DNA from: a virus
Lineage: Duplodnaviria > Caudoviricetes
IMG/VR virus record: IMGVR_UViG_3300041973_000006
Span: 1-60,513 of that record
Reading direction: 5' to 3' (one strand)
DNA length: 60,513 nt
Below, in pieces: positions 1,142 to 58,650 of this stretch. The notes below the pieces were generated by a model that worked only from the letters and a program-made list of their open reading frames with translations, was not told the DNA's origin and ran no database searches. The position numbers and the translations under genes were made by a program. Each line of letters starts with the position of its first letter. Within the stretch, counting starts at the first letter, position 1.

Positions 1142-1155
1142 AGGAGGCTCGCGGT

Positions 1156-2291: not shown

Positions 2292-2444
2292 GGACACTTA
2301 TTCCTCCACGGGCAAACCGTCACCATGGTCCCCTTTGCGGGTATGACGGCGATGGACGGTCAAGGCCGCGCTGCCGCGTTAGCTCTCTCGCTTCACTATT
2401 CATTCAATCGTTGCGTTTAGCCACCGATGTGAAAGGACATAAAG

Positions 2445-2633: not shown

Positions 2634-2990
2634 GGTCGCACCTCTCTCGCTTCGCTAACGGTGTCCGATAACACTCATGTCGCAAGGTTCGCTTTCCAAT
2701 GGGAAAGAAGGGCCTTCGTTCCTGCGCACGGGTCCGCTCGTGCATCGCTTTCCGAGGGCCTTCTTATGAAGCGGCTCAATTCCAACTCGGCGGCGCGGCC
2801 TATTCCGCCTTATCTGTCTCGCGGGACCGGTCAGGTGGAAGCCTTCGCGGACGCCGTGCGCTTTATGAACCGGCACGAATTGAACTCCACCGGCTACGGG
2901 TACTGTCTCGGCTGCCGTGGCTACCACACGTGGCTCGCAGGCAAACATCTGGGGTGCGCACCCGCCCCTCGCAAGGAGCACCTGAACTGA

Positions 2991-7014: not shown

Positions 7015-7649
7015 TGATGGGAGTCAAATGCTTCTTGATCGTCCCGTCTGACATGGTCGAGCGCAGGCTACGGCGCTACACGTCCGGTGATGGTAATCCC
7101 TGCCCGCGCGTTCCCGGCCAGTACAGTTATCACGACGCGTCAGCGGCCATCGACAGAATCGAATCGTCCTTCCGAGGCCTCGACGGAGAGGTCGCCTCGT
7201 CTTCGGTTGAGGCATGGGACCGGACCGACGAGCGCTGGCCTAAAGCATGCCGCTGCAATTACGTCTTCGTGGAGGATGACGAGTGGCAATACAGCCCTGA
7301 GCGGCTATGGCGACGCGAAGACACGGGCGAGTTGCTTCTGCTGCGCGATGCGCCGCCGGGTGCGATGTACGACGCTTACTGGTACCACGCCATGCCCGAG
7401 TACTGCGGGCTCGATGGCCGGGCGCTCATTGTGAAGCTCCCAAACGGTGTGCCCTGGCACATCGACGGCTGCGCGAACAACTGCACCGACCAGGCCGACT
7501 TCCATCGCGGCGGCCACAAGTGCTGGGTTCGGCACGGCGAGCCGCCCCTTATCACCGTCGACAAGGCGGGAAAGACCTGCGGCGCCGGAGCCGGCTCTAT
7601 CCTCAGCGGCAATTACCACGGATTTCTTCGGCAGGGAGTCTTTACCTGA
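7014..7649 (+). CDS. Conserved Cys/His/Trp-rich phage protein
   Basis: C-terminal W.RHGEPPLITV..SI...YHGFL; coupled between lysin and spanin. Confidence 0.6.
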   Translation: MMGVKCFLIVPSDMVERRLRRYTSGDGNPCPRVPGQYSYHDASAAIDRIESSFRGLDGEVASSSVEAWDRTDERWPKACRCNYVFVEDDEWQYSPERLWRREDTGELLLLRDAPPGAMYDAYWYHAMPEYCGLDGRALIVKLPNGVPWHIDGCANNCTDQADFHRGGHKCWVRHGEPPLITVDKAGKTCGAGAGSILSGNYHGFLRQGVFT

Positions 7650-8140
7650 TGAACCCCTACGTCCTGAATCCCTGGCGCGCCTTCCTCGGCCTGTCGCCTG
7701 TTTGGAAGCTGGTCGCGGCCCTTTTCCTGCTCATGTGCCTGACGGGCCTCTGGGGCTGGTATCACACCGCCAGCTACAACCGCGACCGCGCCGAGTTCGA
7801 GCGCCAGCGTGAGGAGTTCCGGCTGCGTGACGCAGAGCGCGCCTCGGAGCGTGACCAACTGATCGGGCGGGCGCTCGAAGCGGAAAGACAGCTTCCGCCG
7901 CTGCTCAAGGCCAACGAGGAGCTGCGTAGCTCGCTCGCGGAGTTCGGCGCGCGGGGCCGCGCGGCAGTCGCCGAACAGGAGGAGGCGAAGAGGACTTATG
8001 AGGCTGAACTGGCTGAAATCGCCCGTACTTCTGACAACTGTGCTCTGTGCCGCAGGCTTTGCGCAGAGCGCGCAAACGACCCCAACCCCAGATACCGGTG
8101 CGCCTCGGACAAATGCGACGTCTTCTGCGCCAGCCGCTGA
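7649..8140 (+). CDS. i-spanin (Rz-like)
   Basis: N-terminal TM, long coiled coil, C-terminal Cys; position in the lysis block. Confidence 0.6.
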   Translation: MNPYVLNPWRAFLGLSPVWKLVAALFLLMCLTGLWGWYHTASYNRDRAEFERQREEFRLRDAERASERDQLIGRALEAERQLPPLLKANEELRSSLAEFGARGRAAVAEQEEAKRTYEAELAEIARTSDNCALCRRLCAERANDPNPRYRCASDKCDVFCASR

Positions 8141-11742: not shown

Positions 11743-12363
11743 ATGAACCGGCCGTTTCCTCCAGAGCAGCTCCTCGACGAATTGGAGGCCGAGTTCGTGC
11801 CGGCTCCCGATGTGCTGGAGTGGGCGCTTGAGGCTTTCGTTGAGCCGGGAGGACCTTTCTATGACGAAGGGCACGAGCACCTGCTCGATGCGCAGCTGGG
11901 CTTTCTCTGGACCAGCGCGGCCAACTCCAGGCGCGGCGTCAGCGTCGCCGGCGATGCCTCGATGCCCCAGAGCGTCGCCCGGCGCCTCGGCGGATGGGAA
12001 AAGGAGATGTACCTGTGGAACCTGCGACGCTGGTTCGGTACCGACAGGCTCGACTTCCTGATCCGCCTCTCGGCCCCTATCTCGGCCGAGTACTCGGACC
12101 TATCTTTCTGTGCGCTGGTGAAGCATGAACTTTGTCACTGCGCGCAGGCCCTGAAGGACGGTCGGTTGTGGTTTAAGAAAGATGGCAGCCGCGTCTTTAC
12201 TCTGGTGGGACATGACGTCGAGCAGCACATCGCGGTTGTTCGTGACTTCGGCCCGGTCGGCCGCAACGTCAAAAGCTTCGTCGAGGCCGCGACCTCTCCC
12301 CCACGGTTCGGGGAAGCCGACGTCGAGATTGCCTGTGGTAACTGTCTCAGGCTCGCCGCATGA
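11743..12363 (+). CDS. Putative phage metallopeptidase
   Basis: ALVKHELCHC...GHDVEQH..VVRDFG, typical of the family found next to terminase genes. Confidence 0.8.
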   Translation: MNRPFPPEQLLDELEAEFVPAPDVLEWALEAFVEPGGPFYDEGHEHLLDAQLGFLWTSAANSRRGVSVAGDASMPQSVARRLGGWEKEMYLWNLRRWFGTDRLDFLIRLSAPISAEYSDLSFCALVKHELCHCAQALKDGRLWFKKDGSRVFTLVGHDVEQHIAVVRDFGPVGRNVKSFVEAATSPPRFGEADVEIACGNCLRLAA

Positions 12364-12371
12364 GTGGCGTG

Positions 12372-12389
12372 ACCTATAACGTTATAGGT
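12372..12389. promoter_or_regulatory. Perfect 18 bp palindrome ACCTATAACGTTATAGGT overlapping the terS RBS (member of a dispersed family)
   Basis: Direct reading; related copies at about nine other sites. Confidence 0.8.
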
Positions 12390-12394
12390 GCTAT

Positions 12395-12973
12395 GTGGCT
12401 GACGAGAAGACCCGGAACGGGGAACAGAAAAAGCCTCTCAGACTCACGGAGAAGCAGAAGCGCTTCGTCGTCGAGATGCTGGCCTGCCACGAGCCGCCGC
12501 TGGAGGTTGTGAAAGCTCTCAAGCTCGAATTCAAGCTGGACGTCACCCGGCAGGCAGTCGAGCGTTACGACCCAACCACCGCGGCCGGGCAGGAGTTGAG
12601 CGAGAAGCTGAAGGATTACTTCTGGGAGGTGCGTCAGAAGTGGGATGAGCAGGCCGAACAGGACCTGATCGGCAATATCAAGCACCGCCTCGGCGTCTAC
12701 CGGTCGATCCTGAGGCGTGCCGTCAACCGGGGTGATGATCGCCTCGCTCTCGAAGTGATGAAACAGACCGCTCAGGATAAGGGCGGCGCATTCACTAATC
12801 GGAGAGTGTTAGACGGTAAGGTGGAATTATCTACCGAGGAGCAGAAGCGTGAGTTGGCGGCAGCCATGCTGAAGAAGTTAGTGGCGGAGGGGAAGAGTAA
12901 AGTCGAGGCGCGGACCGAACTGATTAGGATGGGCGTAGATGAGCGGCACCTCCCAACCCTACAAGATAGTTGA
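12395..12973 (+). CDS. terS: Terminase small subunit (DUF2280-like)
   Basis: LTEKQKRFVVEMLAC..P..V...LK.EF..DVTRQAVERYDPT..QTAQDKGGAFTNRR; upstream of terL. Confidence 0.8.
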   Translation: MADEKTRNGEQKKPLRLTEKQKRFVVEMLACHEPPLEVVKALKLEFKLDVTRQAVERYDPTTAAGQELSEKLKDYFWEVRQKWDEQAEQDLIGNIKHRLGVYRSILRRAVNRGDDRLALEVMKQTAQDKGGAFTNRRVLDGKVELSTEEQKRELAAAMLKKLVAEGKSKVEARTELIRMGVDERHLPTLQDS

Positions 12974-25955: not shown

Positions 25956-26002
25956 AGCGAGCGGGAACCTTCACGACACGACGGCCAGCACTCTCAGCCT
26001 TC
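25813..26002 (-). pseudogene. tnpB: C-terminal fragment of IS200/IS605 TnpB
   Basis: KAESAGRRVVKVPARFTSQECSQCG..HRCQCGLTLHRDHNAALNI zinc-ribbon/RuvC-III signature; rest of the gene absent. Confidence 0.8.
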
Positions 26003-26224
26003 CCATACATGGCTGCGCCAGTCGGGGCCGATGATACCGTCCCGCAAGGCCGACGCAATCATTCCCCGGTGCGAGATAAAAAGAATAAAGGGTATCTTTT
26101 AACTTCTACCGAGCTTGCCAATGAATGTATCAAACTTTTGTTCAAGGCTTTAGATTATGAAAGCCGGAGAAGGAAATAAGCTGCTTTCGGGTAGGAAGAT
26201 GTCTGCTTTTAAACCATATATTCA

Positions 26225-26253
26225 TTGACACCCCTCCTCGCCTGACATATCTT
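26225..26253 (+). promoter_or_regulatory. Sigma70-type promoter of moron
   Basis: TTGACA-17 bp-TATCTT. Confidence 0.6.
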
Positions 26254-26327
26254 CTCGGCGCTTCATGTTATGGGTTCATCGGCCCCACAAATCAATCATT
26301 AGAATTAAAGTAGTGGGTATTTCGCCC

Positions 26328-27302
26328 ATGTCACAGCCTAATCCTAATTTACGGCCCTGCATGGAATGTGGACATTTGCTCAGCAAAGCTGCTGCGAAGT
26401 GTGTAAATTGTGGGGCCGGAACTCCTTTTGGAGCATACTGTGAATTGTGTGGAGCAAAAGATAAGTTCAGTAATGTAGCTTCTCGCTATCACAGTTCTTG
26501 CAAAGAAAGTATTTTAGCACCCCTGAAGAAAAATCTTATTTGTCCTGGATGTAATCAGGTCATTGGAGAGTTTAAAGACGAATACTTAGACCATTCTAAG
26601 AGAATGTGTAAACACTGTGGCTCACGTCGGGTGTTTATGTATCAAGGAATGCCTGTAGTTAAGCTTAAAAACTGTATAAATTGTGGTTTGCAGATTATTG
26701 CGCCATTTCATCAAAGCCATAATTCCGAAATGAGTCTTCATGATGTGTGTCTTCCATTCTATGAAAAGAAATATCCTGAATTAGCAAAAGAGATTCGTCT
26801 GCTGAAAATGAAAGACGAAGCCGAGGACAGGGAAAGAAATTATCTTAGTTATAAAGATAATATCGATAGAGCCATTAAAATAATGGAAGAATGGGTTGAT
26901 ATAATAGATGGTCAATCTTCTAGGAAAATTGAGTACTGGCGAGATAGAGACCGAGCATTTGTACTTTGGTGTCCCAGGTTCATTAATGGGAGCAATGCTA
27001 ATCGGGGCATTATCTTCAACTTCAGGGGAATGCATTTTGAAATCGTATTTTGGTCATCCTCAGATGCTGAGTACTTTGATAGTTACGTCGCATACGGGAG
27101 TAAGAAGATACGTACTGACAGCATTACGAAAGCACATTTCAATGTGTGGCTGTATTGGCTGCATACCGGAGAACCAGAGCCAGTACATCTCCTAAATGCA
27201 GAAGGGCGAAAAAACGAGAAAGCTGATAACGGGTGTCTTATTGTAGTAGCTTCACTTATAGGTTTGTTAGTGTTTCTTGCAATACTTGATTTGTTATTTT
27301 AA
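26328..27302 (+). CDS. AT-rich moron: multi-zinc-ribbon protein with C-terminal TM anchor
   Basis: Several CxxC pairs; terminal hydrophobic helix; visibly lower GC than flanks. Confidence 0.75.
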   Translation: MSQPNPNLRPCMECGHLLSKAAAKCVNCGAGTPFGAYCELCGAKDKFSNVASRYHSSCKESILAPLKKNLICPGCNQVIGEFKDEYLDHSKRMCKHCGSRRVFMYQGMPVVKLKNCINCGLQIIAPFHQSHNSEMSLHDVCLPFYEKKYPELAKEIRLLKMKDEAEDRERNYLSYKDNIDRAIKIMEEWVDIIDGQSSRKIEYWRDRDRAFVLWCPRFINGSNANRGIIFNFRGMHFEIVFWSSSDAEYFDSYVAYGSKKIRTDSITKAHFNVWLYWLHTGEPEPVHLLNAEGRKNEKADNGCLIVVASLIGLLVFLAILDLLF

Positions 27303-27331
27303 TAGGGCTCCTAAATCTTCCAGCAAAGCGT

Positions 27332-27371
27332 GAGCGCCCCGTTGATGCCATAGACGCATTGCGGGGCGCTC
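27332..27371. repeat. Hairpin copy 1 with loop CATAGAC
   Basis: GAGCGCCCCGTTGATGC-CATAGAC-GCATTGCGGGGCGCTC; homologous to 28041-28083. Confidence 0.75.
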
Positions 27372-27541
27372 TCGCGTAATGCTGCGCCGCGCAGATGGCG
27401 AACGCTCTAAAGCGCGCGTTGATTAAGTTCGGATTGTGCGAGTAGGTATAACGTTATACATAAGTTTCTAGTGACAACTCCCCACACCTAAGCTAACATC
27501 CGTCCCGACAACTAGCAGCCCGCCACGAAGGGGAATCAATA

Positions 27542-27766
27542 GTGAGCGCAGACCGCACGACGGAAATCCTCAACTACCTATCAGCCATCAGCCGCGAAGT
27601 GGGCGAGATGCGGCAGGAGATGAACGCGCGGCTCTCTCGTCTTGAATCCGACGTGCGCGGGATTCACACAAGGCTTGACCGGCTAGAGGCTCGCATATTG
27701 GACGGGCGCGCGGACCAGCGCGAACTGGAAGATAGGGTTTCGGCTTTAGAATCCGGCTCGCGTTGA
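27542..27766 (+). CDS. Small coiled-coil protein
   Basis: Heptad pattern; AAGGGGA RBS. Confidence 0.6.
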   Translation: MSADRTTEILNYLSAISREVGEMRQEMNARLSRLESDVRGIHTRLDRLEARILDGRADQRELEDRVSALESGSR

Positions 27767-27794
27767 CGGGCGCGTGCGCGGTAGAATCCGCCGC

Positions 27795-27977
27795 ATGGCT
27801 CTCACTACATGCCCCGAATGTCAAGCCGCTATATCCGACGAGGCGCAAGCCTGCCCAAACTGTGGAAAGCCAAACGCGACCATTGCAGGGCGAAAGCGCC
27901 GAGAGGAAACGCTAGTTGGCCTGCTCTGCCTTTGCGGATTCATCGTATTTATCTTGTATCTGTTCGGCTGGTTGTGA
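27795..27977 (+). CDS. Zinc-ribbon plus TM moron protein
   Basis: MALTTCPECQAAISDEAQACPNCG, C-terminal TM; TAGAAT 7 bp upstream (possibly leaderless). Confidence 0.7.
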   Translation: MALTTCPECQAAISDEAQACPNCGKPNATIAGRKRREETLVGLLCLCGFIVFILYLFGWL

Positions 27978-28040
27978 TGCTATAATCCGCGCCTGACAGC
28001 AGCAGCCCGAAAGCGGCTCTAATATCCTTTCTAGCGGGCC

Positions 28041-39463: not shown

Positions 39464-39557
39464 AAGGCATCAGCCAGCCCTTTTCGCGGTCCGATTTGCC
39501 ACCCCCTCCCTAAAATGAATATTGAAATACATGGGCGGGTATGCTATACACCCGCTC

Positions 39558-40361
39558 ATGCTCCCTGAAACTCTCGTCACTCCGCCCTTCTCCATCAACC
39601 CGGATCCGAGTCTGCTGCACCTGACGCCCGGCCTTGAGGCCGCACTTCATAAGACGCGCTACGTGATTGAGCGCCGGCAGGGGCTGACGGCTATCCTCGG
39701 CGATGTGGGTCTCGGAAAATCTACCGTACTCAGGTACCTCTACCAGAGCTACGCCTCGCGTGACGATGCGTCGGTCGCCTTTATCCATACTCCGACGTTC
39801 AAGTCGGAGTTCGCCTTCCTGAAGGCGATCTGCTCTGAGTTCGGCCTGCCGGTCAGGCCCTCCCAGCAGCGGCAGGAATCGGAGTTGAATGACTTTCTGA
39901 TCTCGGAATATTCCGCTAACAGGCTCGTCGTCGTCTTCGTGGACGAGGCGCAGAAGCTGCCTGGCGCGCAGCTCGAACTCGTCCGCACGCTCCTCAATTT
40001 CGAGACGGGAAAGGTGAAGCTCATCCAGATCGTGCTTGCGGCGCAATTGGAGATTCGGCAGAAGCTCGCCGACCCGTCGAAAAAGGCGATCCGCTCAAGA
40101 ATCTTCGCCCCTTCCCTGCTGGAGCCGCTCACGCTTTCCGAGACGCAGGAGATGATCGAGTACCGCTGCCGGCGGTCCGGGATCGAGAATCCGTTTTCAC
40201 CGGATGCGGTTGAAGCTGTCTACCGATTGACCGGCGGCGTGCCGCGCGAGGTGCTGAAGACCTGCGCGATCGCCGTCGAGCTAACGGAGGCGCAAGGGCT
40301 GGAGCGTGTCCCGCCAGATCTAGTGGATAGCCTGCACGCGGAGGCAGTCTATGCGGAGTGA
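39558..40361 (+). CDS. ExeA/GspA-type AAA+ ATPase
   Basis: PFSINPDP, GDVGLGKST, VFVDEAQ, LEPLT..ET, TGGVPRE; start could be 39522 or 39531. Confidence 0.9.
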   Translation: MLPETLVTPPFSINPDPSLLHLTPGLEAALHKTRYVIERRQGLTAILGDVGLGKSTVLRYLYQSYASRDDASVAFIHTPTFKSEFAFLKAICSEFGLPVRPSQQRQESELNDFLISEYSANRLVVVFVDEAQKLPGAQLELVRTLLNFETGKVKLIQIVLAAQLEIRQKLADPSKKAIRSRIFAPSLLEPLTLSETQEMIEYRCRRSGIENPFSPDAVEAVYRLTGGVPREVLKTCAIAVELTEAQGLERVPPDLVDSLHAEAVYAE

Positions 40362-44898: not shown

Positions 44899-45873
44899 TT
44901 AAATTGCGGTCGCTCCAGCCCTCTCGGTGACGTTGGCAGCCACCGGTGACACCGCGGGAGGCTGGCCCATGACGTAGCTGACGGGCTTACCGATCACGCG
45001 CGCAACCTCATCGGGCGTGGCGTAGGTCGAGCGCATCGACCTCGCCGCCGTAGATAGCTCGGTTGCGAAGCACTTCAAATCGCGCGTCACCAAAAGCTGC
45101 GTCAGCGTGGTCGCGCCCTCGATGGCGACGCGCGCACCGACGTGCAGCGCAGCCTGGCCTCGTATAGCCATCTCGGCGCAGGAGAGGTTCGAGTCGTCGA
45201 ACTCCTCTGGCCGGGGCGTCAGCAGGTCGCGGAACTGGAGGGCGGGACTGGGGAGCGCAAGGCAGGTCTGCGAATCGGGGAAGGCGCCGCGCAGGTCCTC
45301 GAAGCTGTGGGCGTTGCCTAAGAGCACGCGGCCGACGTGTCCCGTTTTGCCTGAGCCGTTCGAGCAGTCGAGATACCAGAACTGAAGTGCGGAGCCCTGG
45401 TTCGATTCGAGCACGTCGTGGAGCTTCTGACGGGCGCGCGCATTATCCACGCCGCCGACGAGCACGGTGATGTCGCAGCCTATGATGAGCGACTCGTCGA
45501 ACTCGCCGACGACGTAGGAGCAGTTGATGCCCCACGCCTGACCGTAGCGACGAGCGAGCGCCGCCGCTTTCGGCACTCCGATCTCGGCGTCGCAGAAGTT
45601 CTGGCCGGCCTCGACGTTCTTCTCCTCGACGATGTCGGGGTCGCAGAGCGTGAGGTGGACGCCCTTGTGCAGGCGGTAGATGGCGCGCATCGTCCGCCCG
45701 ATGTGCTGCGCCAGATGAGAGCCGCCGCCGCCGAGACCGACGAGGATGATTTGACAGCGCTGCCACTCGCGCGTGCGGACGGTCGCGGCGCGCAGGTATG
45801 ACGTGTCAACGGTGGTGATGACTTCCGGCTTCTGAATTTCTATGCGGCGGAAGCCCTTCTTATTTTTTGGCAT
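44899..45873 (-). CDS. ThiF/E1-like ubiquitin-activating enzyme (PRTRC-type)
   Basis: LVGLGGGGS, DPDIVEEKNV..QNF..EIGVPKA, VDNARAR, WYLDCSN, LPSP, SCAE. Confidence 0.9.
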   Translation of the reverse strand: MPKNKKGFRRIEIQKPEVITTVDTSYLRAATVRTREWQRCQIILVGLGGGGSHLAQHIGRTMRAIYRLHKGVHLTLCDPDIVEEKNVEAGQNFCDAEIGVPKAAALARRYGQAWGINCSYVVGEFDESLIIGCDITVLVGGVDNARARQKLHDVLESNQGSALQFWYLDCSNGSGKTGHVGRVLLGNAHSFEDLRGAFPDSQTCLALPSPALQFRDLLTPRPEEFDDSNLSCAEMAIRGQAALHVGARVAIEGATTLTQLLVTRDLKCFATELSTAARSMRSTYATPDEVARVIGKPVSYVMGQPPAVSPVAANVTERAGATAI

Positions 45874-45893: not shown

Positions 45894-46115
45894 TTACTTT
45901 GGAGCGGGCGCTTTGAGCAGGACGCCTCTGGCTATGTTGTATTCCTGTACGTAGCCGGCCAGCGCATCACGCTGTTGCTGGAACTCTTCCACCAATTCAT
46001 CAACAGCCTCGATAACTTCGTCGGCCAAAGGCTCTTCGGAAAAATCGTGGTCTTTGAGGTGGCGGATAATCCAATCGAACGCCTTGAGCTTGTTTTCGGC
46101 TGACTCCACACTCAT
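45894..46115 (-). CDS. Small acidic helical protein between E2 and E1
   Basis: ATGA coupling to the E2 gene. Confidence 0.55.
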   Translation of the reverse strand: MSVESAENKLKAFDWIIRHLKDHDFSEEPLADEVIEAVDELVEEFQQQRDALAGYVQEYNIARGVLLKAPAPK

Positions 46116-46843
46116 CCCGGCATCACCCCCGTCTCGAAGAATCCCTCTATCGCCTTGTTGAGCGTCGTCCCATGCTCGGCGTCCTGCCTCCGCAGGTCGT
46201 CGGCCGGGTACGCCTCGCCGCTCGCCGCGAGCGCCCGGAGCAGCCGTCGGCAGTCGTCCGGCTCGCGCTTCGATTTAGCGTTCACGACGTGGTTGTTGAA
46301 GGTCGTCCGGTACGCGAAGAGCGCCCACGCCTCGCCGATGCCTTTCCCTGTCGCCTGCGGCTGCTTCGAGAGGCCCCAGCAGACCGAGCCGTCCTGCATG
46401 ACGTTCGGCAGGGGCGCTCGATAGAGTTCCTGCCCCGGATCGAGGTGCGGCGTCTTCACGGCGAAGGCGAAGTACTGCGTGCCGAAGCCGCACCAGACCA
46501 TGCCGGGCAGCGGAGCGTTCACGCGCGAGGTCACTTCCTCGGGCGTGCCGTCGTGCTCGGTCAACTCAAGGTTGTGGACGGCGGGCGGCAGGTACATCAC
46601 CGCCCACTCGACGCCGCGAAAGACGCCCCAGCGCACGACGCCTCCGCAGTGGAGGTTCGGCGCGAGCCACCCCGTATCCACAGGGATACCGGTGAAGGCT
46701 TCGCGCACGGCGGCCGCTGAGCGGAACTGCTCGATGACCTGACCCTGCTCGCCGACGGCGCGGAAGAGAAACTGCCCGTTGGCGATCTCTATCGTGGGGT
46801 TGGCGTGGCCGTTTTGAGTGAGTTTCATGCCTGGTGCGTTCAC
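46112..46843 (-). CDS. Prokaryotic E2 family D protein (PRTRC protein B-like)
   Basis: PLPGMVW..FAFAVK..LYRAPLPNVMQDGSVCWG..TTFN.H. Confidence 0.85.
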   Translation of the reverse strand: MNAPGMKLTQNGHANPTIEIANGQFLFRAVGEQGQVIEQFRSAAAVREAFTGIPVDTGWLAPNLHCGGVVRWGVFRGVEWAVMYLPPAVHNLELTEHDGTPEEVTSRVNAPLPGMVWCGFGTQYFAFAVKTPHLDPGQELYRAPLPNVMQDGSVCWGLSKQPQATGKGIGEAWALFAYRTTFNNHVVNAKSKREPDDCRRLLRALAASGEAYPADDLRRQDAEHGTTLNKAIEGFFETGVMPG

Positions 46844-47808
46844 AGTCTTTCCTCCATCTGTGCGTACAGTTCGGGCAGTTCGGGAATGACGAAGAACTCG
46901 CCGTCGGGGCCGACTGTATCCGGGTGCGGCGACTGGGCCTCTATCTCCGCAGCGGCGTTCCACATCGCCACAGCCGTCCCGACGTGCAGCCGCGGCGCTG
47001 CATCCAGCCATTCCTCACAGGCCGCGACCGCCGCGAGGACCTCGCTCGCGCGCTGGCGCGCGACGAGCAGCTTCGCCACGTTCTGCCCGGTCCATTCGAG
47101 CCCGAACGTGCCGCCCGGCACGTCGAGGTAGACGCTTCCCGTGCTGTAGTTGGTCAGCTCGAATGCGAGCGGCAGATACTGAAGCGCCGAGCCCGAGACC
47201 GCGCAGGAGTACTTAAAGAGTTGCCAGCCGACGGCGCAGAGCGGCGGCGCCGGCCGAAGCGCTGATAGCTCAGGGCCGAGGTCGTGCAGCGCCGCGAACT
47301 CGCGCCAGCCGTAGCCGCCCGTGAGCGTCCAGGCGCGCCCCGAGAGAACCTGCGCGAGCTGGCAGGCCGTGCCAATCCGTCGGAAGTCGAACGCACCCTG
47401 TCGCCAGTCGTGCGCCTGCATGCTCTCGACGGTGATGCCGGGCATGAAGAAGGTCGGCGCCTTGCGAATCGCGTCCTCTACGTCGCCGAGCGGGAAGAGG
47501 TGACGGTTGACGAGGACATAAAACTCCTGCTCGCGGGCGAGCGAGTAGAGCGGCGCCTGCGAGGCGGCGTACTGGCGGGGGAAGAGCGTGCGGTAGAGGT
47601 CGCAGACGCGCACGGCCACGTCGAGGCGCTCTTCGTATGTGTCGCGCGACCAGAGGGCGTTCATCTCAAGGTACTCGGCGGCGCCCATCGGCGTGCGCGC
47701 ACGCAGACGGCCGGCGAGGTACTTCGTCGCGCGGTCGAGGTCGAGCAGGCTGCGGTCGGCGAGGAGCGCGGGCGCGAGGTCGTGTTGCTGGATTGTGAGC
47801 GCGGTCAT
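46840..47808 (-). CDS. PRTRC-associated protein (protein F position)
   Basis: Directly upstream of and coupled to E2; STGSVYLD motif. Confidence 0.5.
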   Translation of the reverse strand: MTALTIQQHDLAPALLADRSLLDLDRATKYLAGRLRARTPMGAAEYLEMNALWSRDTYEERLDVAVRVCDLYRTLFPRQYAASQAPLYSLAREQEFYVLVNRHLFPLGDVEDAIRKAPTFFMPGITVESMQAHDWRQGAFDFRRIGTACQLAQVLSGRAWTLTGGYGWREFAALHDLGPELSALRPAPPLCAVGWQLFKYSCAVSGSALQYLPLAFELTNYSTGSVYLDVPGGTFGLEWTGQNVAKLLVARQRASEVLAAVAACEEWLDAAPRLHVGTAVAMWNAAAEIEAQSPHPDTVGPDGEFFVIPELPELYAQMEERL

Positions 47809-48959: not shown

Positions 48960-51900
48960 TTATCGCCCCCTATCGTTGGCCGTCTTGACGTTCTTCTTCC
49001 GAGGCCCACGCTCCGGATTCTTCGTGGCGCTCGGCTTCTTCGGAGCTACCGCCCTAGCAGCCTTCTTCGCCGGTGCTTTCTGAGCAGCCTTCTTCGAGCC
49101 GGCTTTGGTGGCCGCCTTCTTCGTCGCCACAGACTTCTTCGCACCTTTCGCCGCTGTCTTCGCCTTGTCCTTCTCGGCATCGAGACGCTGAACAATCAAC
49201 TCGTATTCGTTGTCTCCGAGCGGCATCATCTTCACGGGGAAGAGCGAACTGTTGAGCGCATCCGATGGTTCGCTGCCGGCGAGGTTGACGGTGATCTGCA
49301 CGCCCAGGCCCTTGAGGAGCGTGTGCGTGACGACGAGCGAGCGGCCGTTCAGACGCTTCTCTATCTCGGCCAACCGGTCGGGCTTCTGCGGGGCTGCGGT
49401 CGCCGTCGGAGGAGGCGTCGCACGGTTCGTGAGTATGTCGCTTCGCACCTCGTGCGCGGCGTCGGCGAAGCGACGACGGTCGTTTACAACCACCGCCGGC
49501 TCAACTTCAGCGGACTCCGGACCTTTGGCTTCCTGCTCCGCTTTTCGTCTCTCCTGCTCTTCGCGCCACGCCTCATCGGCGTTGGCTTCATTGACCGGAT
49601 CGTAGTCTCTGGCGGCACGCTCCTCTTCGAGGGCTTCCACTTCCAGATTGCCGCTCGGGTCGAGCATGTCGAGCGTCGCAGTGCGCCGCGTGTCGTCTTC
49701 GAAAGCCTCGCCCTCGAAAAGCGAAGGGCTCGCTTCGACCGGCGCAACGCTGTAGGTGCGACCGTCCGTGCTCACGCGCTCCTCGGCGCGGGCCATAACG
49801 TTATGGGCGAGCGCCTCGCGCTGTTCGGCCGAGAGCCTGCGCACGATACGCACGAGCCCGGCCGGCGCCCCCGACTCGGCGGCCAGTTGCGCGACAGCTT
49901 CGTCGGTGCCGGCCGGCGCGCCTGCGAGCAGCGGCAGGAGTTTTTCAAGCGCCGCCTGAACCTTGCCGACGAAGGGCTGGCTGACCTCGGCCAGGTGCGA
50001 GATCGCGGTGTCGCTCTGCCGGCTCCACTCGGAGTCACAGAAGACCGTCACGACCGCGAGACGTTTGTCATCGTCGGTGCGCTTCAGGCCGTGCTGCGCG
50101 TTGGCGCGGACGGCGTGGAGGATGGCGTCCCGGAGCGTGCCCTTGTGCAGGTTGATGTCGAGCGGTTTAGCTTCGAGCAGGCAAGCCTCTCGGCGGTGGT
50201 TGCCCTCGGCCAACCAGTAACGTTCCCCGTCGAAATAGACCTCGGCCGGGTCTCTGAACGCGCCGCCCGCCCGGAGCACGGCGCGCAGGTCCTCGACGTG
50301 CACGCGGTCGAGGCCGCCTGCCCGCATGAGTAGTGACGGGTGCGTGCTGATTAGCCCCGGGTGCATCTGCTGGCGCAGCACGGGCGTTGTATGTTCGGCG
50401 AAGAGCGAGGCGGCAGGCGCGGGAGCGGGAGCGGTTACAGGGGTCGGCTCTACGGTTGCAGGAGTGCCGGCCGGCTCGGGCTCGGAAGAGGACGCTTCCG
50501 TTTCAGGTTCGCCGAAGAACATCTCTTCCGCGGCGGCGGCCGCCTCGTCGGTCTCGTCCGTGGCCGGCGTCATGCCGAGAGCGCGGGCGCGCTCGCCGAG
50601 CGCCTCCTGAATCTCTATGACCTCGGCGAGCGTGAACCTTTCGGGGTCGGCGCCGCCGGCCATGATCTCGTCGAGGCGGTAGTTTTTGACGACGGCCTGA
50701 AACTCGGGGAGAGTCTGCACGTCGTCACGGAGCCGGCTGATGATTGTCTCGCCGAGTGTCGGCGCGAGGAGCGAAACCTGAAGCGGGCACTGCTCTCCGG
50801 AGGGCCATACGGCCAGGTAGATGCCCTGAGACTGGGCGATGCCGCTCAGGCGCTCTTCCCCTCCGGCGACTGCGCGGCAGACGAGGATCATGTGACTCGG
50901 CGGAGACTCGGGAGATTTATCGAACGAGGCCGCTCTCGCAGCCTTCAGCGCATCGGCCTCGTTGAAGATGGACTGCGTCGAGACGCTCTCGCGGACGAGA
51001 ACGAGCGCCTTCTCGGTGGCAACGTCTATGATTGCTTCGCCACGGAACGCATCCTGTTCGTAAGCGATGCCCTGCTCGTCGAGCCATTGCCGCAACTCGG
51101 CCGCGAGCGCCTCCTGCCCGGAGAAGAGGTCGGCCCCGTCTTCGACGGTCGCCGACTCTCCCGCGCTCTGCGCCTCGCTTTCGGTCGTCTCGTCAACTTG
51201 CGCGGGGGCATCCGCCAGCGCGACGAGCGCCACGCGCGCGACCGCGTACTTCTCAGGAGTGTCTATCCCCGCCTCGACGAACTGGTCGTAGGTGTAGCCC
51301 TCAAGCTCAGGGTCGGGGAAGTGCTCGGAGCCGAGCAGTCGCATCACGTCCGCGCGCTCGCGCAGGCCGTGGAGCTCCGGGGCGAGCGTGCCGGCCTCAA
51401 TCGCATCGGCGATACGGGTGCAGGCGAGCCCGACGCGCCTGTAGGTTGTGGCGCGGTCAGGCCGCATCGTCTCGGCTCGCTCGTAAGTCTCGCGCGCCGT
51501 CTCGCGCCAGAAGGCGGCGTCGCGGGCCGGAGAGGGGGGGACATCATCTTCGATGGCTTCCGGCGCAGCGACCGGCGTCTCTTCTTCTACTTCGACCCGG
51601 GCAGGCTTGTGCTTGCCCTCGCGCGCCTGGAGCCTGCGCGCGGCAGCGAAGGCCATCTCGGGGTCACTGAAGATGCTGGTGCCGATTTTAAGGCCGGCGT
51701 GCCTGCAACGGACTGAGCCGGGCACCAGAGCCTCTTCGGCTACCTCGATCATCCAGCCGGCGGAGGCTAAGTCGTCAGGCACGGGCGGCAGGGAAGCGAC
51801 GTTCTCGACCTCGTCCGTCTCTTCGCAATCGGGAGCCGGCCCTTCAGTCTCTATCGCTTCCTGAATCCGGCGGGCTGCTGCCTGAGCGTCGTCGATGCGC

Positions 51901-52031
51901 TTGAAGAGGACCGTCCGCCTGCCCGACGGGTGGATGTAGTACCACCTGTTATTCACCTTGTCCCTCCTCGGTCTCCATCCGAGATCACGTAACTGCACCG
52001 TGGTTTCACCGCCCGCGACTGTTTCCTGCAT
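48960..52031 (-). CDS. Large multidomain ParB-like protein (ParB-N plus HTH, acidic N-terminal region, Lys/Ala-rich tail)
   Basis: YFDGERYWLAEGNHRREA..ANAQHGLKRT..DKR..SDTAISHLAEVSQPFVGKV. Confidence 0.8.
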   Translation of the reverse strand: MQETVAGGETTVQLRDLGWRPRRDKVNNRWYYIHPSGRRTVLFKRIDDAQAAARRIQEAIETEGPAPDCEETDEVENVASLPPVPDDLASAGWMIEVAEEALVPGSVRCRHAGLKIGTSIFSDPEMAFAAARRLQAREGKHKPARVEVEEETPVAAPEAIEDDVPPSPARDAAFWRETARETYERAETMRPDRATTYRRVGLACTRIADAIEAGTLAPELHGLRERADVMRLLGSEHFPDPELEGYTYDQFVEAGIDTPEKYAVARVALVALADAPAQVDETTESEAQSAGESATVEDGADLFSGQEALAAELRQWLDEQGIAYEQDAFRGEAIIDVATEKALVLVRESVSTQSIFNEADALKAARAASFDKSPESPPSHMILVCRAVAGGEERLSGIAQSQGIYLAVWPSGEQCPLQVSLLAPTLGETIISRLRDDVQTLPEFQAVVKNYRLDEIMAGGADPERFTLAEVIEIQEALGERARALGMTPATDETDEAAAAAEEMFFGEPETEASSSEPEPAGTPATVEPTPVTAPAPAPAASLFAEHTTPVLRQQMHPGLISTHPSLLMRAGGLDRVHVEDLRAVLRAGGAFRDPAEVYFDGERYWLAEGNHRREACLLEAKPLDINLHKGTLRDAILHAVRANAQHGLKRTDDDKRLAVVTVFCDSEWSRQSDTAISHLAEVSQPFVGKVQAALEKLLPLLAGAPAGTDEAVAQLAAESGAPAGLVRIVRRLSAEQREALAHNVMARAEERVSTDGRTYSVAPVEASPSLFEGEAFEDDTRRTATLDMLDPSGNLEVEALEEERAARDYDPVNEANADEAWREEQERRKAEQEAKGPESAEVEPAVVVNDRRRFADAAHEVRSDILTNRATPPPTATAAPQKPDRLAEIEKRLNGRSLVVTHTLLKGLGVQITVNLAGSEPSDALNSSLFPVKMMPLGDNEYELIVQRLDAEKDKAKTAAKGAKKSVATKKAATKAGSKKAAQKAPAKKAARAVAPKKPSATKNPERGPRKKNVKTANDRGR

Positions 52032-54630: not shown

Positions 54631-54751
54631 CAATATGGATTCTATATAGAAACTATATAGTTGTCAAGATAAAAATATCCCTGCCCGCCGCAACAGGGGA
54701 AAGGAAATTAAGGCTTGCTTTCTATATAGTTACAATATAGAATCTATACAG
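54631..54751 (-). promoter_or_regulatory. Leftward promoter PL with CTATATAG operator boxes
   Basis: TTGACA (54667-54662)-17 bp-TAGAAT; boxes at 54631/54642/54653 and 54722/54733/54744 with an 11 bp period. Confidence 0.85.
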
Positions 54752-54944
54752 CCTCTTAGGGGATTAAATCCATAATCTTGGACGCAATATCCAGTTGAAT
54801 AAAATGTTAAATCCGTGTACTCTGCCGGGCACGCTTCAGGGCTCTCCGTGTCGCATCTTCGGCACTCCTGAATCCGCTCCCCAAGCACACGAATATCGGG
54901 CCGCCGAAAGGCAGCCTGCGTCAACTCAATTTATTGCGTTTAGG

Positions 54945-55214
54945 TTAGGCGCCGAACCACACACTGACCATCGTTTCGATGAACAGCATGTAAGCGTCCG
55001 GGTCTGTGGTGTCGTCTGCGTTGGTCTGGCCGCCGCCGTCGTCAGGGCAATCCGTGTTTACGGCGGGGTCACAGGGCGGGGGCAGAGGGCAAGTAGCCGT
55101 TACGGTGGGGTCGCACGGTTCCGTGCGAGGCTCGCGTATGACGCCTGCGTTAGTCGAGGCCGCGAACAGAAAAACGAAGGCGAGGATAAGGGGCAAGAAT
55201 CTGCGCTGTGTCAT
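54945..55214 (-). CDS. Small secreted peptide precursor
   Basis: Signal peptide ending ASTNA, mature GVIREP, twin PCDP..CP repeats, acidic linker, hydrophobic C-terminus; GGAG RBS. Confidence 0.7.
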   Translation of the reverse strand: MTQRRFLPLILAFVFLFAASTNAGVIREPRTEPCDPTVTATCPLPPPCDPAVNTDCPDDGGGQTNADDTTDPDAYMLFIETMVSVWFGA

Positions 55215-55313
55215 TGTCTACTCCGTATGGTGTGTTGTCAGGGGGACAGCCCTGCACGACCACTATACAGAATTTTCAAATTTTCTTGAAAATCATTTCG
55301 GAGTGCTAACAGC

Positions 55314-57074
55314 ATGCGACAAGTCGAAGCGTCTGCAATAGTTTACGATTGCGAAGTGGCGCGCCAGATTGAGGATGCTGGCGACTTTGCGAGGGCGAAA
55401 GAGTATATATACGAAGCTTGGCAGCACCTAGACGATCTGCCGACAATAGCGCGCGCGGAAATTCTCTTGCGGATGGGTAGCATTGCCAGCCGCGCGGGGA
55501 GCGCGAACATATTAGGTGCCGAACAGGACTCGGCAAAGGATTTACTTACGGAAAGCCTCCGTCTATTTGAGGCAGAGGGCAACCGCTCGAAAATAGCCGA
55601 AGCCAGTCTTGGGCTGGCATTATGCTGCTGGCAGGAAGGGGCCTTTGAGGATGCCCATGTATGGCTCGGGCAATCGGCAACTTATACGCCAAGCTCGGAT
55701 ACGTCTCTAAAATTCAGATGGAGCATATTAAGTGCAATAGTAGAAGAGAACGCAGGCCATATATATCGTGCCCATGACATATTGCGTTCCATCGCGCCAC
55801 TATGCAATGGGCTTGATAATCACCTTCTTCTCGGTAAGTATCACAATCAATATCAAATCGTTCTCATGCATTTAGCGGCAGAGACCGACGACTATGATTA
55901 CTATGACCGGGCTCTTGTTGAAAATGCGGCGTCGTCATTTCACTTTGAAAGTGGAGGTAATAAAAGGGCGGCAATTTCAGTTAAAAACAATGCCGGCAAT
56001 ATACTCACACTCATGGGGCGTCCGGCCGATGCTCTCAAACCTATTGATGAAGCCATACACATGGCAGAGCGCCTTAAAGATAGAACAAGGCTGGCGCAAT
56101 GCCTAGAGACTCGCGCTCAGGCGTTGCTCGCTTTGCGTCGGTACGCGGAAGCCGAGAAAGCGGCCCGGCGCTCCGTACAACTACTGCGCATCGGTGGCGA
56201 GCGGAGCCTGCTGTGCGAATCGTTAATCACTCTCGGCCGCTGTCACGCCCGCATGGGTAACAAGGCGCTGGCCGTCCAGTGCTTTGATGAAGCGGTAGAG
56301 GTCGCGGAGTTCATCGGCTACAAAGAGGGGCGCGGTCTTGTATCACTCGCCACGTTAGAAGAGTTTGACGACCTCGACATAGAGGCGCGCCGCGCGCATC
56401 ACGCAATCATCGCCACTGACCTTAAAACGACACAGGACGCCGCGCTGCGCCGCCGGGCTGAGTCTTGCCTGCAACGCACCTGTGACCTGATGCGAGCAGA
56501 ATACGCTCTGCCGAGTCCTTCCAAGCAGAAATTCACGTTTCCGAAAGACTTTTCGTTAAAGCAATTTATTGACGAGATAGAAGGGGAAGTTATACGGCAG
56601 GCGTTCGTATATGCTGGCGGGTGTCAGCGGATCGCCGCCCGCACACTCGGCGTCTCGGATTCTAATCTAAACGCCAAGCTTAAAGGTAAGCATAAGAGTA
56701 TCAAGGCGCTTCAAACAAAGGGCCATTATCGCGTCGGAGATGTCGGCGCGGATATTGAGGCGATACTTAACATTGATAGCCACAAGATGCCGGATGATTC
56801 TCTGTGCGGCTTCGGGATTTTTGAACATGACTTCGTGGTCGTAAGGCGCGGGGTGCCAGCCGCCTCGGGCTCTCCTGTGGCCGTGCGCTCAAGAGGGCAC
56901 GTCTACATCGGCGTGCTTTCGCACATTCCGGGCGGCATCGAGCTTCTATCCACGGACGAAACAGACGAGTCGTGGGAGCTTCCCGACAAGGATGTTGAGG
57001 CGGTGGAATTAGTGGTGGGCTGGATAAAGCATGAGGAAATAGACGGCGGGATTGATGCGGTTCGCAGTTTATGA
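55314..57074 (+). CDS. TPR-repeat / Fis-type HTH / S24-like (LexA CTD) regulator
   Basis: Many TPR helices (NNAGNILTLMGR, ETRAQALLA); IRQAF..AGGCQRIAARTLGVS; DDSL..GI..HDFVVV..G.PVAV. Confidence 0.8.
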   Translation: MRQVEASAIVYDCEVARQIEDAGDFARAKEYIYEAWQHLDDLPTIARAEILLRMGSIASRAGSANILGAEQDSAKDLLTESLRLFEAEGNRSKIAEASLGLALCCWQEGAFEDAHVWLGQSATYTPSSDTSLKFRWSILSAIVEENAGHIYRAHDILRSIAPLCNGLDNHLLLGKYHNQYQIVLMHLAAETDDYDYYDRALVENAASSFHFESGGNKRAAISVKNNAGNILTLMGRPADALKPIDEAIHMAERLKDRTRLAQCLETRAQALLALRRYAEAEKAARRSVQLLRIGGERSLLCESLITLGRCHARMGNKALAVQCFDEAVEVAEFIGYKEGRGLVSLATLEEFDDLDIEARRAHHAIIATDLKTTQDAALRRRAESCLQRTCDLMRAEYALPSPSKQKFTFPKDFSLKQFIDEIEGEVIRQAFVYAGGCQRIAARTLGVSDSNLNAKLKGKHKSIKALQTKGHYRVGDVGADIEAILNIDSHKMPDDSLCGFGIFEHDFVVVRRGVPAASGSPVAVRSRGHVYIGVLSHIPGGIELLSTDETDESWELPDKDVEAVELVVGWIKHEEIDGGIDAVRSL

Positions 57075-57341
57075 GCCCTTACTGCCCGTTTTCTTTGTTG
57101 CCTTCTTAGGTCGCTTAACCGGCTTGTCGCCGCCATTTACATCTTTTGTTTTAGCAAGTCTCAAGGCTTCCGCGCGTTCGGCGGCACTAAGGCTTTCAAT
57201 GTCATAACGCTGCTTCAATATCTCTTCCAACTGCCTCGGCGGTGTTCGCCCTTCCTTCTCAGCCTCTTTCTTTAGTAATCCCCACAACTCGTCTTTGAAA
57301 TCCCAAAGCAGGCGGTTTCGTTTGTTATCGTCGGGAGCCAA
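57069..57341 (-). CDS. Ribbon-helix-helix repressor (CI-equivalent candidate)
   Basis: RLLWDFKDELWGLLKKEAEKEGRTPPRQLEEILKQRY; AAAGGAG RBS. Confidence 0.65.
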   Translation of the reverse strand: MAPDDNKRNRLLWDFKDELWGLLKKEAEKEGRTPPRQLEEILKQRYDIESLSAAERAEALRLAKTKDVNGGDKPVKRPKKATKKTGSKGS

Positions 57342-57370: not shown

Positions 57371-57463
57371 CTATATAACAACTATATCGTTTTTATATCA
57401 CAGCTATATAGAAACGTACAACGGCAAATTTCGGTTGACAACTATATAGTTTCTATATAGTAT
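57371..57463 (+). promoter_or_regulatory. Rightward promoter PR with CTATATAG operator boxes
   Basis: TTGACA (57435)-17 bp-TAGTAT; boxes at 57371/57382/57393/57404 and 57442/57453. Confidence 0.85.
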
Positions 57464-57484: not shown

Positions 57485-57691
57485 ATGGCAACTGCCGAAA
57501 CAATGGAACTCAAAAGCGGGCTAATTTCGATTAATAGGCTCTTAATGGATTGTCTGGACGAGGAAGGGGAGCAGGAAGGTCGAAGCCGCTCCAAACAACT
57601 TGAGGCCATTCTGCGCGAGCGATACAGAGACAAAATCGCCGCCCTTGAATCAAGCAAGGCCAGCCCCACGCCGAGACGTAAGACGGCTTAA
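57485..57691 (+). CDS. Ribbon-helix-helix protein (Cro-equivalent candidate)
   Basis: GLISINRLLMDCLDEEGEQEGRSRSKQLEAILRERY; GGAGG RBS; similar to 57069..57341. Confidence 0.65.
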   Translation: MATAETMELKSGLISINRLLMDCLDEEGEQEGRSRSKQLEAILRERYRDKIAALESSKASPTPRRKTA

Positions 57692-58209: not shown

Positions 58210-58650
58210 ATGAAAATCTATATCGCCAGTAGCTGGAAGAACGTCCACGCCGTCGAGATGCTGACTGCTCTTCTGCGCGAGCGCGGCCACGAAGTCCTGT
58301 CTTTCGTCGAGAACAACCACGGCGAGAATCCCAACTCGGCAGTAAACGAGCGGGCGGGCGAAAAGCCCGTGCCCTTCGATGAATGGTGCGCTTCGGCGGA
58401 CGGCCGCCGCTCTTTCGAGTACGACACGAGCGGCGCCACTCAGTCGGACCTCGTGATCTACGTCGGACCGTCGGGCACGGATGCGTGGGCAGAGGTCGGG
58501 GCGGCCTGGGCGAGCGGTCGAGCAGTGCTCGGTTTATGGGCTAAAGGCGAGCCGGTTGGCCTTATGCGCCGCATGGTCGAGTGGTTTGAAGACTACCGCG
58601 CGTTGCTCAAGGCCGTTGACGAATGTGCCCGCCCGCACGTGGCGGCATGA
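58210..58650 (+). CDS. Nucleoside 2-deoxyribosyltransferase-like protein
   Basis: MKIYIASSWKN..FEYD..SDLVIYVGPSG..AWAEVGAA. Confidence 0.75.
   Translation: MKIYIASSWKNVHAVEMLTALLRERGHEVLSFVENNHGENPNSAVNERAGEKPVPFDEWCASADGRRSFEYDTSGATQSDLVIYVGPSGTDAWAEVGAAWASGRAVLGLWAKGEPVGLMRRMVEWFEDYRALLKAVDECARPHVAA

Follow-up and report, generated by a model that had tools for sequence, protein, structure and literature searches.

We describe a two-gene cassette carried by a soil phage, in which a gene for a small, secreted-looking peptide of 89 aa stands back to back with a gene for a 586 aa protein that combines a long array of tetratricopeptide repeats (TPRs), a Fis-type helix-turn-helix (HTH), and a domain with the fold of LexA. 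The cassette occupies positions 54,945 to 57,074 of the IMG/VR record IMGVR_UViG_3300041973_000006 (Duplodnaviria; Caudoviricetes), a linear record of 60,513 bp with an estimated completeness of 65%. The sequencing runs matched to it comprise one DNA run, from a soil metagenome that may be its source, and no RNA run. The entire record was analyzed, and we refer to it as the window. Our analysis indicates that the cassette is real and conserved, and that it probably senses a peptide. The family to which it belongs is native to the chromosomes of Blastocatellia/Pyrinomonadaceae (Acidobacteriota), and it is apparently a large, undescribed cassette family in Acidobacteria; searching a limited literature collection, we found nothing linking RRNPP systems, or quorum sensing, TPRs and signal peptides, with Acidobacteria. 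As for what the cassette does in the phage, we give an even chance to the following reading: the phage has its own copy of a cassette of two genes resembling the RRNPP peptide-receptor systems, with an exported propeptide, a TPR superhelix as its input, and an output that feeds a ribbon-helix-helix (RHH) switch.

Pairing of the peptide gene with the TPR receptor

A first-pass annotation of the window, made by a model from the sequence alone, had proposed an 89 aa precursor transcribed divergently from a 586 aa protein, and both open reading frames (ORFs) are there. The peptide gene is at 54945..55214 on the minus strand (stop codon at 54945-54947), and the receptor-regulator gene is at 55314..57074 on the plus strand. 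The two genes are 99 bp apart, with a GGAG 7-10 nt before each start.

The evidence that carries the pairing comes from other loci. A profile search of viral contigs reports six of them, and in all six a divergent small ORF lies directly upstream of the receptor. These six small ORFs share a common build: a predicted signal peptide, a G-[IVD]-[IMY] motif, a Pro-rich linker, an acidic stretch, and a hydrophobic tail. Viral contigs searched with the single receptor sequence, or with P0002, its closest relative (40% identity), report no relatives; a tblastn search of a phage GenBank collection with the 586 aa receptor reports no match, and a word-index search with the 89 aa peptide finds only the peptide itself.

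The bacterial comparison is much larger. In species-representative genomes there are at least 551 relatives among the 600 pattern matches listed, and we kept 80; nearly all of these are Pyrinomonadaceae, Chloracidobacterium, and Blastocatellia metagenome-assembled genomes, and among the matches listed the named ones all belong to Acidobacteriota, which fits the earlier suggestion of a diderm host. Metagenomes contribute 535 relatives among 599 matches listed, of which again 80 were kept. The pairing was tallied from 166 loci, counting the 151 with more than 330 bp of upstream sequence, mostly from Pyrinomonadaceae, and a complete divergent ORF with a predicted signal peptide is present in 148 of those 151 bacterial and metagenomic loci. 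Of the three exceptions, two have copies that are cut or broken in frame, and the ORF of the remaining one (L063) is recovered by a hidden Markov model (HMM) of the peptide family. Across 149 loci with a total of 12,151 ORFs, this HMM matches exactly one ORF per locus. The paired genes are divergent, with 30-165 bp between them, across hosts, paralogues, and phages.

Paralogues within single genomes extend the comparison. Three genomes have 25 family TPR genes, and 23 of them have a peptide gene (10/10 in genome G002, 11/13 in G003, and 2/2 in G001). At the sigma54-only loci that have no TPR module, the count is 0/3. The first-pass annotation had named homologous TPR genes without adjacent peptide genes as the finding to look for against its proposal. 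What these viral, chromosomal, and paralogous loci have is, with few exceptions, a peptide gene, and the proposed peptide-linked TPR-HTH receptor, built differently from RRNPP, appears by this comparison of sequences to be a genuine gene pair.

Could the 89 aa ORF be a chance frame, the real gene being the overlapping plus-strand ORF at 54795-55289? GC-rich DNA yields many spurious ORFs, and the plus-strand ORF is the longer of the two (164 aa). But when the 515 ORFs of the window are scored against the family peptide HMM, the 89 aa ORF ranks first with 17.7 bits (E 9.4e-5), and the next ORF has 8.0 bits. The ORF also has the GGAG before its start, and its position, orientation, and architecture are those kept in the 6/6 viral and 148/151 bacterial loci. 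Being the best HMM match, and sitting in the same position as the family peptide gene, argues that the ORF is not there by chance, and we find the chance frame hardly credible.

The family is large, and the TPR module is found with many different outputs. Among 1.8 billion representative sequences, 12,463 are relatives at E ≤ 0.001, a number that falls to 497 when the threshold is E ≤ 1e-30; in the top 150, the S24-like domain is also covered by about 20. The TPR module is fused to an HTH alone, to an HTH and a receiver, to a sigma54 AAA+ domain with an HTH, to GGDEF-EAL, and to a histidine kinase with a receiver, and by being fused to five kinds of output it acts like an input domain. The peptide gene adjoins TPR-HTH-receiver proteins (L171, L177, and L181), a TPR-sigma54-HTH protein (L168), and a TPR-HisKA-HATPase-receiver hybrid kinase (L192) in which no Pfam DNA-binding domain was found, as well as TPR-HTH proteins and forms with an HTH and a dead S24 domain. 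Because the pairing persists across output domains, the small protein appears to be tied to the TPR module itself. There are 10 copies in G002 and 13 in G003. When 201 genomes were sampled evenly across the phylum, five had a match at E ≤ 1e-30, with 1-7 copies each among the best seven candidates scored per genome.

The two proteins and the region around them

The small protein starts with a signal-peptide-like N-terminus (residues 1-23, at 55146..55214, minus strand), made of MTQRR, a hydrophobic core, and TNA. Signal peptides were called with a heuristic of our own, a K or R in the first 8 residues followed by a hydrophobic core, together with the family alignment. The predicted cleavage site, between STNA and GVIREP, fits the family pattern of A-x-A before a G, by the same heuristic. 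Directly after it comes the heptad GVIREPR (residues 24-30, at 55125..55145), which follows the family consensus G-x-[IVM]-x-x-P-[G/R/K] and is comparable to GEIQTPR, GEIHTPR, and GQMETPR in the G002 paralogues; G24 is invariant in the seven viral peptides, as are P43 and P45. GVIREPR may be the mature signal of the window peptide. Residues 34-56 (55047..55115) form two Cys-bounded loops of nine residues, CDPTVTATC and CDPAVNTDC, with a PLPPP spacer between them. They give the protein its two-copy repeat score (scored on the 6-mer PCDPTV), and the loop pair is peculiar to this peptide. An acidic stretch separates the loops from the hydrophobic C-terminal tail YMLFIETMVSVWFGA (residues 75-89, at 54948..54992), and such a tail is present in nearly all family members. 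The precursor features listed in the first-pass annotation, namely the twin Cys loops, the hydrophobic tail, and the predicted signal peptide and GVIREP N-terminus, are all found.

Family peptides have a median length of 78 aa (range 51-94), and none of the small proteins is assigned to a family by Pfam, NCBIfam, or PHROGs (best E-values 0.002-0.17, far under the cut-offs). In many propeptides, a short motif that is specific to the paralogue recurs 2-4 times. Counted crudely, at least two copies of a 6-mer are present in 23 of 160 unique peptides, compared with 1.3% in shuffled sequences. The repeated motif is DGNIPFG[RK] in 3-4 copies in L185; GDMDNGR, GDMPNGK, and further variants in L183; SG[DE]M.T in four copies in L181; GEIHTPR and GEIHNPK in L182; and GDIGSPG in three copies in L102. 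As another example, L192 (on G003:C1; positions 340-3357 of the locus) has a soluble-looking hybrid kinase paired with a propeptide that has four copies of TGTISTT[KR]. As for the tail, 111 of 139 unique bacterial peptides end in Y or F; among paralogues, some tails end in F or Y and others in R or L. We considered the beta-signal of outer-membrane proteins and an exosortase-type sorting signal, and set them aside, as the tail does not alternate, lacks PEP, GG, and Cys motifs, and has ends that vary.

The receptor was modeled with AlphaFold2 on 12 homologues, with a mean predicted local distance difference test score of 83.9, and the model has three parts: TPRs, HTH, and beta domain. Residues 1-400 (55314..56513, plus strand) form a TPR superhelix of about 19 helices (model helices 2-398), the putative sensor. 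TPR_12 scores 54.9 bits compared with a Pfam cut-off of 30.1, and TPR_2, TPR_10, TPR_1, and TPR_8 are also above their cut-offs. Residues 415-464 (56556..56705) form the Fis-type HTH, with model helices over the same residues. HTH_8 matches residues 419-457 with 19.7 bits, just under the Pfam cut-off of 22; it is above the cut-off in receptor homologues, and a profile of 12 receptor-family sequences matches the HTHs of FleQ and ZraR among PDB sequences. The bacterial homologues that have only the HTH as output are 483-525 aa long. A Pfam scan finds no AAA+ Sigma54_activat domain in the window receptor, so it would be a plain DNA-binding regulator.

The third part, residues 484-571 (56763..57026), is a beta domain with the LexA/S24 fold. 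Peptidase_S24 matches residues 494-562 with 21.9 bits, just under the Pfam cut-off of 23.3. A phmmer search of PDB sequences with the C-terminal 117 aa reports nothing, and a profile built from three C-terminal domains matches the LexA C-domain with E 1.5e-6. When the domain is folded alone, its Foldseek matches down to rank 47 are nearly all C-domains of LexA, UmuD', and lambda CI, with TM-scores of at most 0.69. Pfam, profile, and fold matches thus agree with the long TPR array, Fis-like HTH, and LexA/S24-like domain that had been read from the sequence. When the domain is aligned with LexA, Ser496 (56799-56801, in DDSL) pairs with the catalytic Ser (GDSM), and the catalytic Lys pairs with Gly533 (56910-56912), which bears out the claim that the Ser is kept and the Lys lacking. 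Of 20 proteins with the LexA-like domain, none has the Lys (19 have Gly and one Ala), and 8 keep the Ser. The domain is an S24 fold without the Ser-Lys dyad, and we read it as an oligomerization module, and not as a RecA-triggered autoprotease. The first-pass annotation had allowed for RecA signals integrated through this domain; we reject RecA-dependent self-cleavage, which is unlikely given that the catalytic Lys is absent across the subfamily. Inspecting the linker by eye, in a region of low confidence, we saw no Ala-Gly cleavage site.

The divergent control region (55215..55313) includes the two GGAG motifs, a weak promoter-like site on the minus strand (55241-55213, score 9/12), and a perfect palindrome, ATTTTCAA-N6-TTGAAAAT, at 55272-55293, 21 bp before the receptor start. 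This palindrome is unique in the window and has 0 occurrences in 100 shuffles. Of 137 unique intergenic regions from bacteria, 40 have a palindrome TGCAAG-N4-CTTGCA at the corresponding position. We infer that ATTTTCAA-N6-TTGAAAAT is a candidate operator.

A second palindrome, CTATATAG, has six copies in the window where 0.15 are expected. Three are in a left cluster (54639..54729, copies at 54642, 54653, and 54722) together with a leftward TTGACA-17-TAGAAT (54667-54639), and three in a right cluster (57404..57463, copies at 57404, 57442, and 57453) together with a rightward TTGACA-17-TAGTAT (57435-57463). Each cluster overlies a strong sigma70-like site that points outward, and the cassette lies between the two. 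Two RHH-like genes stand on either side of the right cluster. A 90 aa RHH-like gene (57069..57341, minus strand; RHH_4, E 0.068), the candidate switch repressor, is convergent with the receptor gene with an end overlap of 6 bp, and a 68 aa RHH-like gene (57485..57691, plus strand; RHH_1, E 0.031) is the first after the rightward promoter, in a Cro-like position. Both Pfam matches are weak (E 0.03-0.07), and the two genes are paralogues of each other, with 50% identity over 38 residues (E 1e-9). The clusters and the RHH-like pair look like a ribbon-helix-helix version of an OL/OR (left and right operator) switch, and the RHH proteins are the likelier binders of the candidate CTATATAG operators. 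Being bracketed by operator clusters with outward promoters places the cassette in an immunity-type region. The earlier placement of the pair between a leftward promoter and an RHH repressor is right in outline, with the CTATATAG clusters over outward promoters.

In other phages, the cassette of L005, L006, and L007 is beside repressor-type regulators and early genes. L006 has a MuB-like DNA transposition protein (7075-7968) and a 242 aa repressor-like gene (11833-12561) beside its cassette, and the S24-like domain of its receptor has Thr in place of Ser. A FastTree tree of 57 sequences, built on residues 1-420, rooted at the midpoint and with branch supports not inspected, has viral receptors in at least four separate positions, and from this scatter phages seem to have acquired the pair several times. 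The tree does not include L003, which is cut, L185 and L194, which are split or pseudogenes, the fragment P0017, or the 160 orthologous loci. In L004 (9595-11401), the receptor is 70% identical to the receptors of the tandem G003 cassettes L175 and L186 (G003:C2:2424115-2427507), and the peptide cores are GDMQGPG in L004 and GDMQAPG in the tandem cassettes. This likeness suggests, at the level of sequence, a recent exchange and possible phage-host cross-talk. We rejected a prophage origin for the tandem cassettes, as no gene within 80 kb matches one of L004 or another phage except for one partial match to an L002 ORF.

The phage is contractile-tailed, and the remaining genes of the window include a large terminase, a portal, a tail sheath, a baseplate wedge, and an O-like replication initiator. 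Several features elsewhere in the window are recorded here in their own right. On the minus strand there is a ubiquitin-like conjugation pair, a ThiF/E1-like gene (44899-45873) with an adjacent Prok-E2_D gene (46112-47011). The interval 26000-28000, inside the tail module, is a low-GC island (0.466 compared with about 0.62) that is probably a recent acquisition, and its ORF at 26265-27302 has a third-position GC of 0.35 and no PHROG match. The early region encodes a 1023 aa protein (48960-52031, minus strand) that has no Pfam match at E ≤ 0.001, and in which we take one stretch, judged by eye, to be ParB-like. An AAA_22 ATPase is found at 39522-40361, and a nucleoside 2-deoxyribosyltransferase at 58210-58650 (phrog_12607, E 3e-14).

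Proposed mechanism and its rivals

How would such a cassette work? The propeptide would be exported by the Sec pathway and then cut, leaving as candidate signal GVIREPR after the signal peptidase site, the two Cys loops, or both. Outside the cells, the peptide would build up in proportion to how many of them are infected or lysogenic. The peptide would be re-imported by binding proteins of the Opp/Dpp type in this type of host; an uptake route of that kind appears to be available, as G002 has four SBP_bac_5 (Opp/Dpp-type binding) proteins, which are not specific evidence. Inside the cell, the peptide would bind the concave face of the TPR superhelix, in a receptor whose Fis-type HTH would be dimerized through the dead LexA-like domain. 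Binding would alter the occupancy by the HTH of ATTTTCAA-N6-TTGAAAAT, and possibly of other sites, and the outcome would pass into the RHH/CTATATAG switch. A predicted complex of the full receptor with peptide residues 24-89 scores 0.02 (mark 0.32), which speaks neither for nor against this model.

Several observations weigh against peptide signaling of the RRNPP kind, and they should be taken together. The model leaves one step unaccounted for, the crossing of the outer membrane by the peptide in both directions. The window peptide is a weak member of its family (17.7 bits) with a single heptad, the heptad at the orthologous chromosomal locus is conserved and not diversified, and a simple short-peptide model accounts neither for the conservation of a hydrophobic tail nor for the length of the mature part (40-65 aa). 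The 148/151 tally is partly circular, as the signal-peptide heuristic doubled as a search criterion; the paralogue set was searched by HMM instead, yet the HMM includes the signal peptide. Moreover, most of the 160 bacterial loci (L008-L167) are one orthologous chromosomal locus with conserved flanks, with a gene of about 565 aa upstream in 123/160, and downstream a gene of about 521 aa in 119/160 and one of about 557 aa in 85/160, so that the 148 loci represent one old event and are not independent. By eye, we take these flanks to be DNA ligase, a SurA/DsbA-like protein, and UbiB; TatA and TatC are farther out on the upstream side. There are also departures from the pairing in G003: L169 (G003:C2:3897829-3902067) is an orphan receptor without a peptide gene, preceded by what we read from its sequence as presumably a PadR-like gene, and L190 (G003:C2:2132055-2137805) has two receptor copies in tandem, with a single peptide gene for both.

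Two further sets of observations count on the same side. Searches of the 65%-complete record for integrase, rve, and resolvase genes found none, a result that in an incomplete record does not establish their absence, and a temperate lifestyle is then deduced from the operator layout alone; in L003 and L004 the cassette is between portal and large terminase, like a moron. As for homology, the Pfam and NCBIfam scans report none with RRNPP proteins, and there is no RRNPP chain among the best 60 of 116 PDB sequence matches. The best fold matches of the TPR domain are LGN (Z 28.4), Pins (27.6), the phage phi105 Rap with its peptide (26.1), and RapI (25.8), followed by MalT domain III (23.4), AimR (21.2 and 19.5), NprR (21.1), and PlcR (18.1), and Foldseek and an independent all-against-representatives alignment give the same order, with LGN and Pins first. 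The first-pass annotation had looked to AimR, Rap, and NprR, and all three are matched; but LGN and Pins rank higher, and the match is one that TPR proteins give in general, with unrelated ones at Z 16-24. Because rank 50 still has Z 16, the fold tells us that this is a peptide-binding type of superhelix, and not that the receptor belongs to RRNPP.

The first alternative we consider is that the cassette is a regulator and its regulated product, with the small secreted protein as an envelope, periplasmic, or surface protein that is the output, and the TPRs sensing something else, for example a partner protein or a metabolite. It is common for a regulator and its target to be divergent neighbors, there is a palindrome in the shared control region, the long mature part with its conserved hydrophobic tail suggests a membrane or structural role, and the chromosomal core locus is, read by eye, among Tat and SurA/DsbA-like envelope genes. 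What weakens this explanation is that the peptide gene pairs with varied outputs: it persists beside sigma54 and receiver outputs, and beside the L192 kinase, in which Pfam detects no DNA-binding domain. Paralogue-specific repeats would be expected of a specific ligand and not of a generic envelope protein, and a genome with 10-13 separate cassettes is also hard to reconcile with it. We regard the regulated product as unlikely, though to be taken seriously. A different use of the same two proteins would have the TPRs bind the precursor before export, by its signal peptide or its tail, as a report of secretion load or as a partner switch, without any signaling between cells. It requires neither uptake nor an outer-membrane crossing, TPR domains such as those of the structural neighbors LGN and Tom70 often bind hydrophobic or C-terminal peptides, and conservation among the small proteins is highest in the signal peptide and the tail. 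On the other hand, the paralogue-specific repeats are in the exported middle and not in those two parts, and the conserved A-x-A before G, a heuristic site, argues for export and cutting; an intracellular partner seems to us quite improbable.

One more possibility concerns the target and not the sensing. The cassette could be an accessory moron, captured from a host, that alters host physiology, disrupts or listens in on host signaling, or excludes other phages, and has no role in the lysis/lysogeny decision of its own phage. The location of the L003 and L004 pairs fits this, as do the 70% identity of the L004 receptor to a chromosomal cassette with a nearly identical peptide core, the GC content of the 54-58 kb stretch (0.55, compared with about 0.62 in the remaining window), and the fact that lysogeny enzymes were not found in the record at its 65% completeness. 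Against it, the window pair sits between two operator clusters, and the L005, L006, and L007 pairs are by repressor-like regulators and early genes; besides, a moron of this kind could sense a peptide all the same, the target being the only difference. We consider it improbable, by a shade more so than the intracellular partner. A captured host regulator had been mentioned as an alternative in the first-pass annotation, and this is partly right: host chromosomes are the native place of the cassette family, but what was captured is the pair, and not a regulator alone.

Peptide sensing that feeds the RHH switch, if true, would have consequences beyond this phage. A stronger claim, which we hold as tentative and somewhat doubtful, is that this is the first arbitrium-like peptide communication of a phage infecting a diderm, with a density signal replacing RecA/SOS, and that it belongs to a large undescribed RRNPP-like family of Acidobacteriota. 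That family would be convergent with the Firmicutes systems, or very distantly related to them. Within the immunity region of the phage, the receptor would take a CI-like slot, with a scaffold of the LexA/CI type whose autoprotease is dead; it also exemplifies how a LexA fold can be reused in a non-catalytic role. The logic of peptide signaling would reach beyond its present range, to the diderm envelope and to outputs new to it, namely sigma54 activators, histidine kinases, and enzymes of c-di-GMP, and Acidobacteria, abundant in soil and poorly understood, would have a candidate system of cell-cell communication. The cassette is carried by at least seven phage contigs and is highly expanded in a diderm soil phylum. 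It also offers testable material: a short candidate peptide per receptor, dozens of natural cognate and non-cognate pairs in one genome, and a defined immunity region.

Comparison with known systems

In RRNPP receptors, an XRE-type HTH is N-terminal to the TPRs. The signature used by RRNPP_detector is a receptor of 250-500 aa and a secreted propeptide of 10-100 aa, at an intergenic distance of -60 to 400 bp (PMC10075063), and intragenic duplications or multiple peptides are reported for the propeptides (PMC10075063; PMC9765709). The same sources describe quorum sensing by re-imported peptides (RRNPP systems, phage arbitrium among them) as belonging to the Gram-positive Firmicutes and to mobile elements of these bacteria (PMC10075063; PMC9765709). 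Our cassette resembles the pairs Rap-Phr, NprR-NprX, PlcR-PapR, and AimR-AimP in that a small gene for a putative Sec-type propeptide adjoins one for a cytoplasmic TPR receptor. The spacing of 99 bp and the 89 aa propeptide are within the ranges of RRNPP_detector, and TPR HMMs match the receptor. Further likenesses are the internal duplications in propeptides, the many paralogous cassettes per genome, and the phage copies near lysogeny control. On the other hand, the window receptor, at 586 aa, is above the 500 aa limit; its HTH is Fis-type and C-terminal to the TPRs; the family hosts are diderm Acidobacteriota and not Firmicutes; the outputs of the family include sigma54 activators, a histidine kinase, and GGDEF-EAL; and its propeptides have a conserved hydrophobic C-terminal tail. 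With respect to the arbitrium system (AimR-AimP-AimX) in particular, which combines an AimR-family receptor, a hexapeptide signal from the propeptide C-terminus, and an aimX-type lysogeny regulator downstream, there is no sequence match to AimR, and the gene order is different, with the genes divergent and the peptide upstream.

Other known proteins resemble the receptor in one part or another. As in LexA, lambda CI, and UmuD, there is an HTH and then an S24-fold beta domain, in a gene within a phage immunity region, but the HTH of the window receptor is Fis-type, a TPR sensor of 400 residues precedes it, and the Lys is replaced by Gly. The C-terminal HTH_8 is that of the enhancer-binding proteins NtrC, FleQ, and ZraR, and the TPR-module paralogues P0029, P0039, and L168 carry Sigma54_activat together with HTH_8, whereas the window receptor lacks an AAA+ sigma54 domain. 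In structure, the best matches include LGN/Pins and MalT domain III, and the inner groove of LGN holds extended peptides, according to the titles of the complex entries; these are, however, eukaryotic scaffolds or a STAND regulator, they have no adjacent peptide gene, and the function is not shared. Because homology to RRNPP is undetected, the order of domains and the type of HTH differ, and the phylum is a different one, we conclude, as far as sequences can tell, that the cassette is analogous to RRNPP systems and not a member of them.

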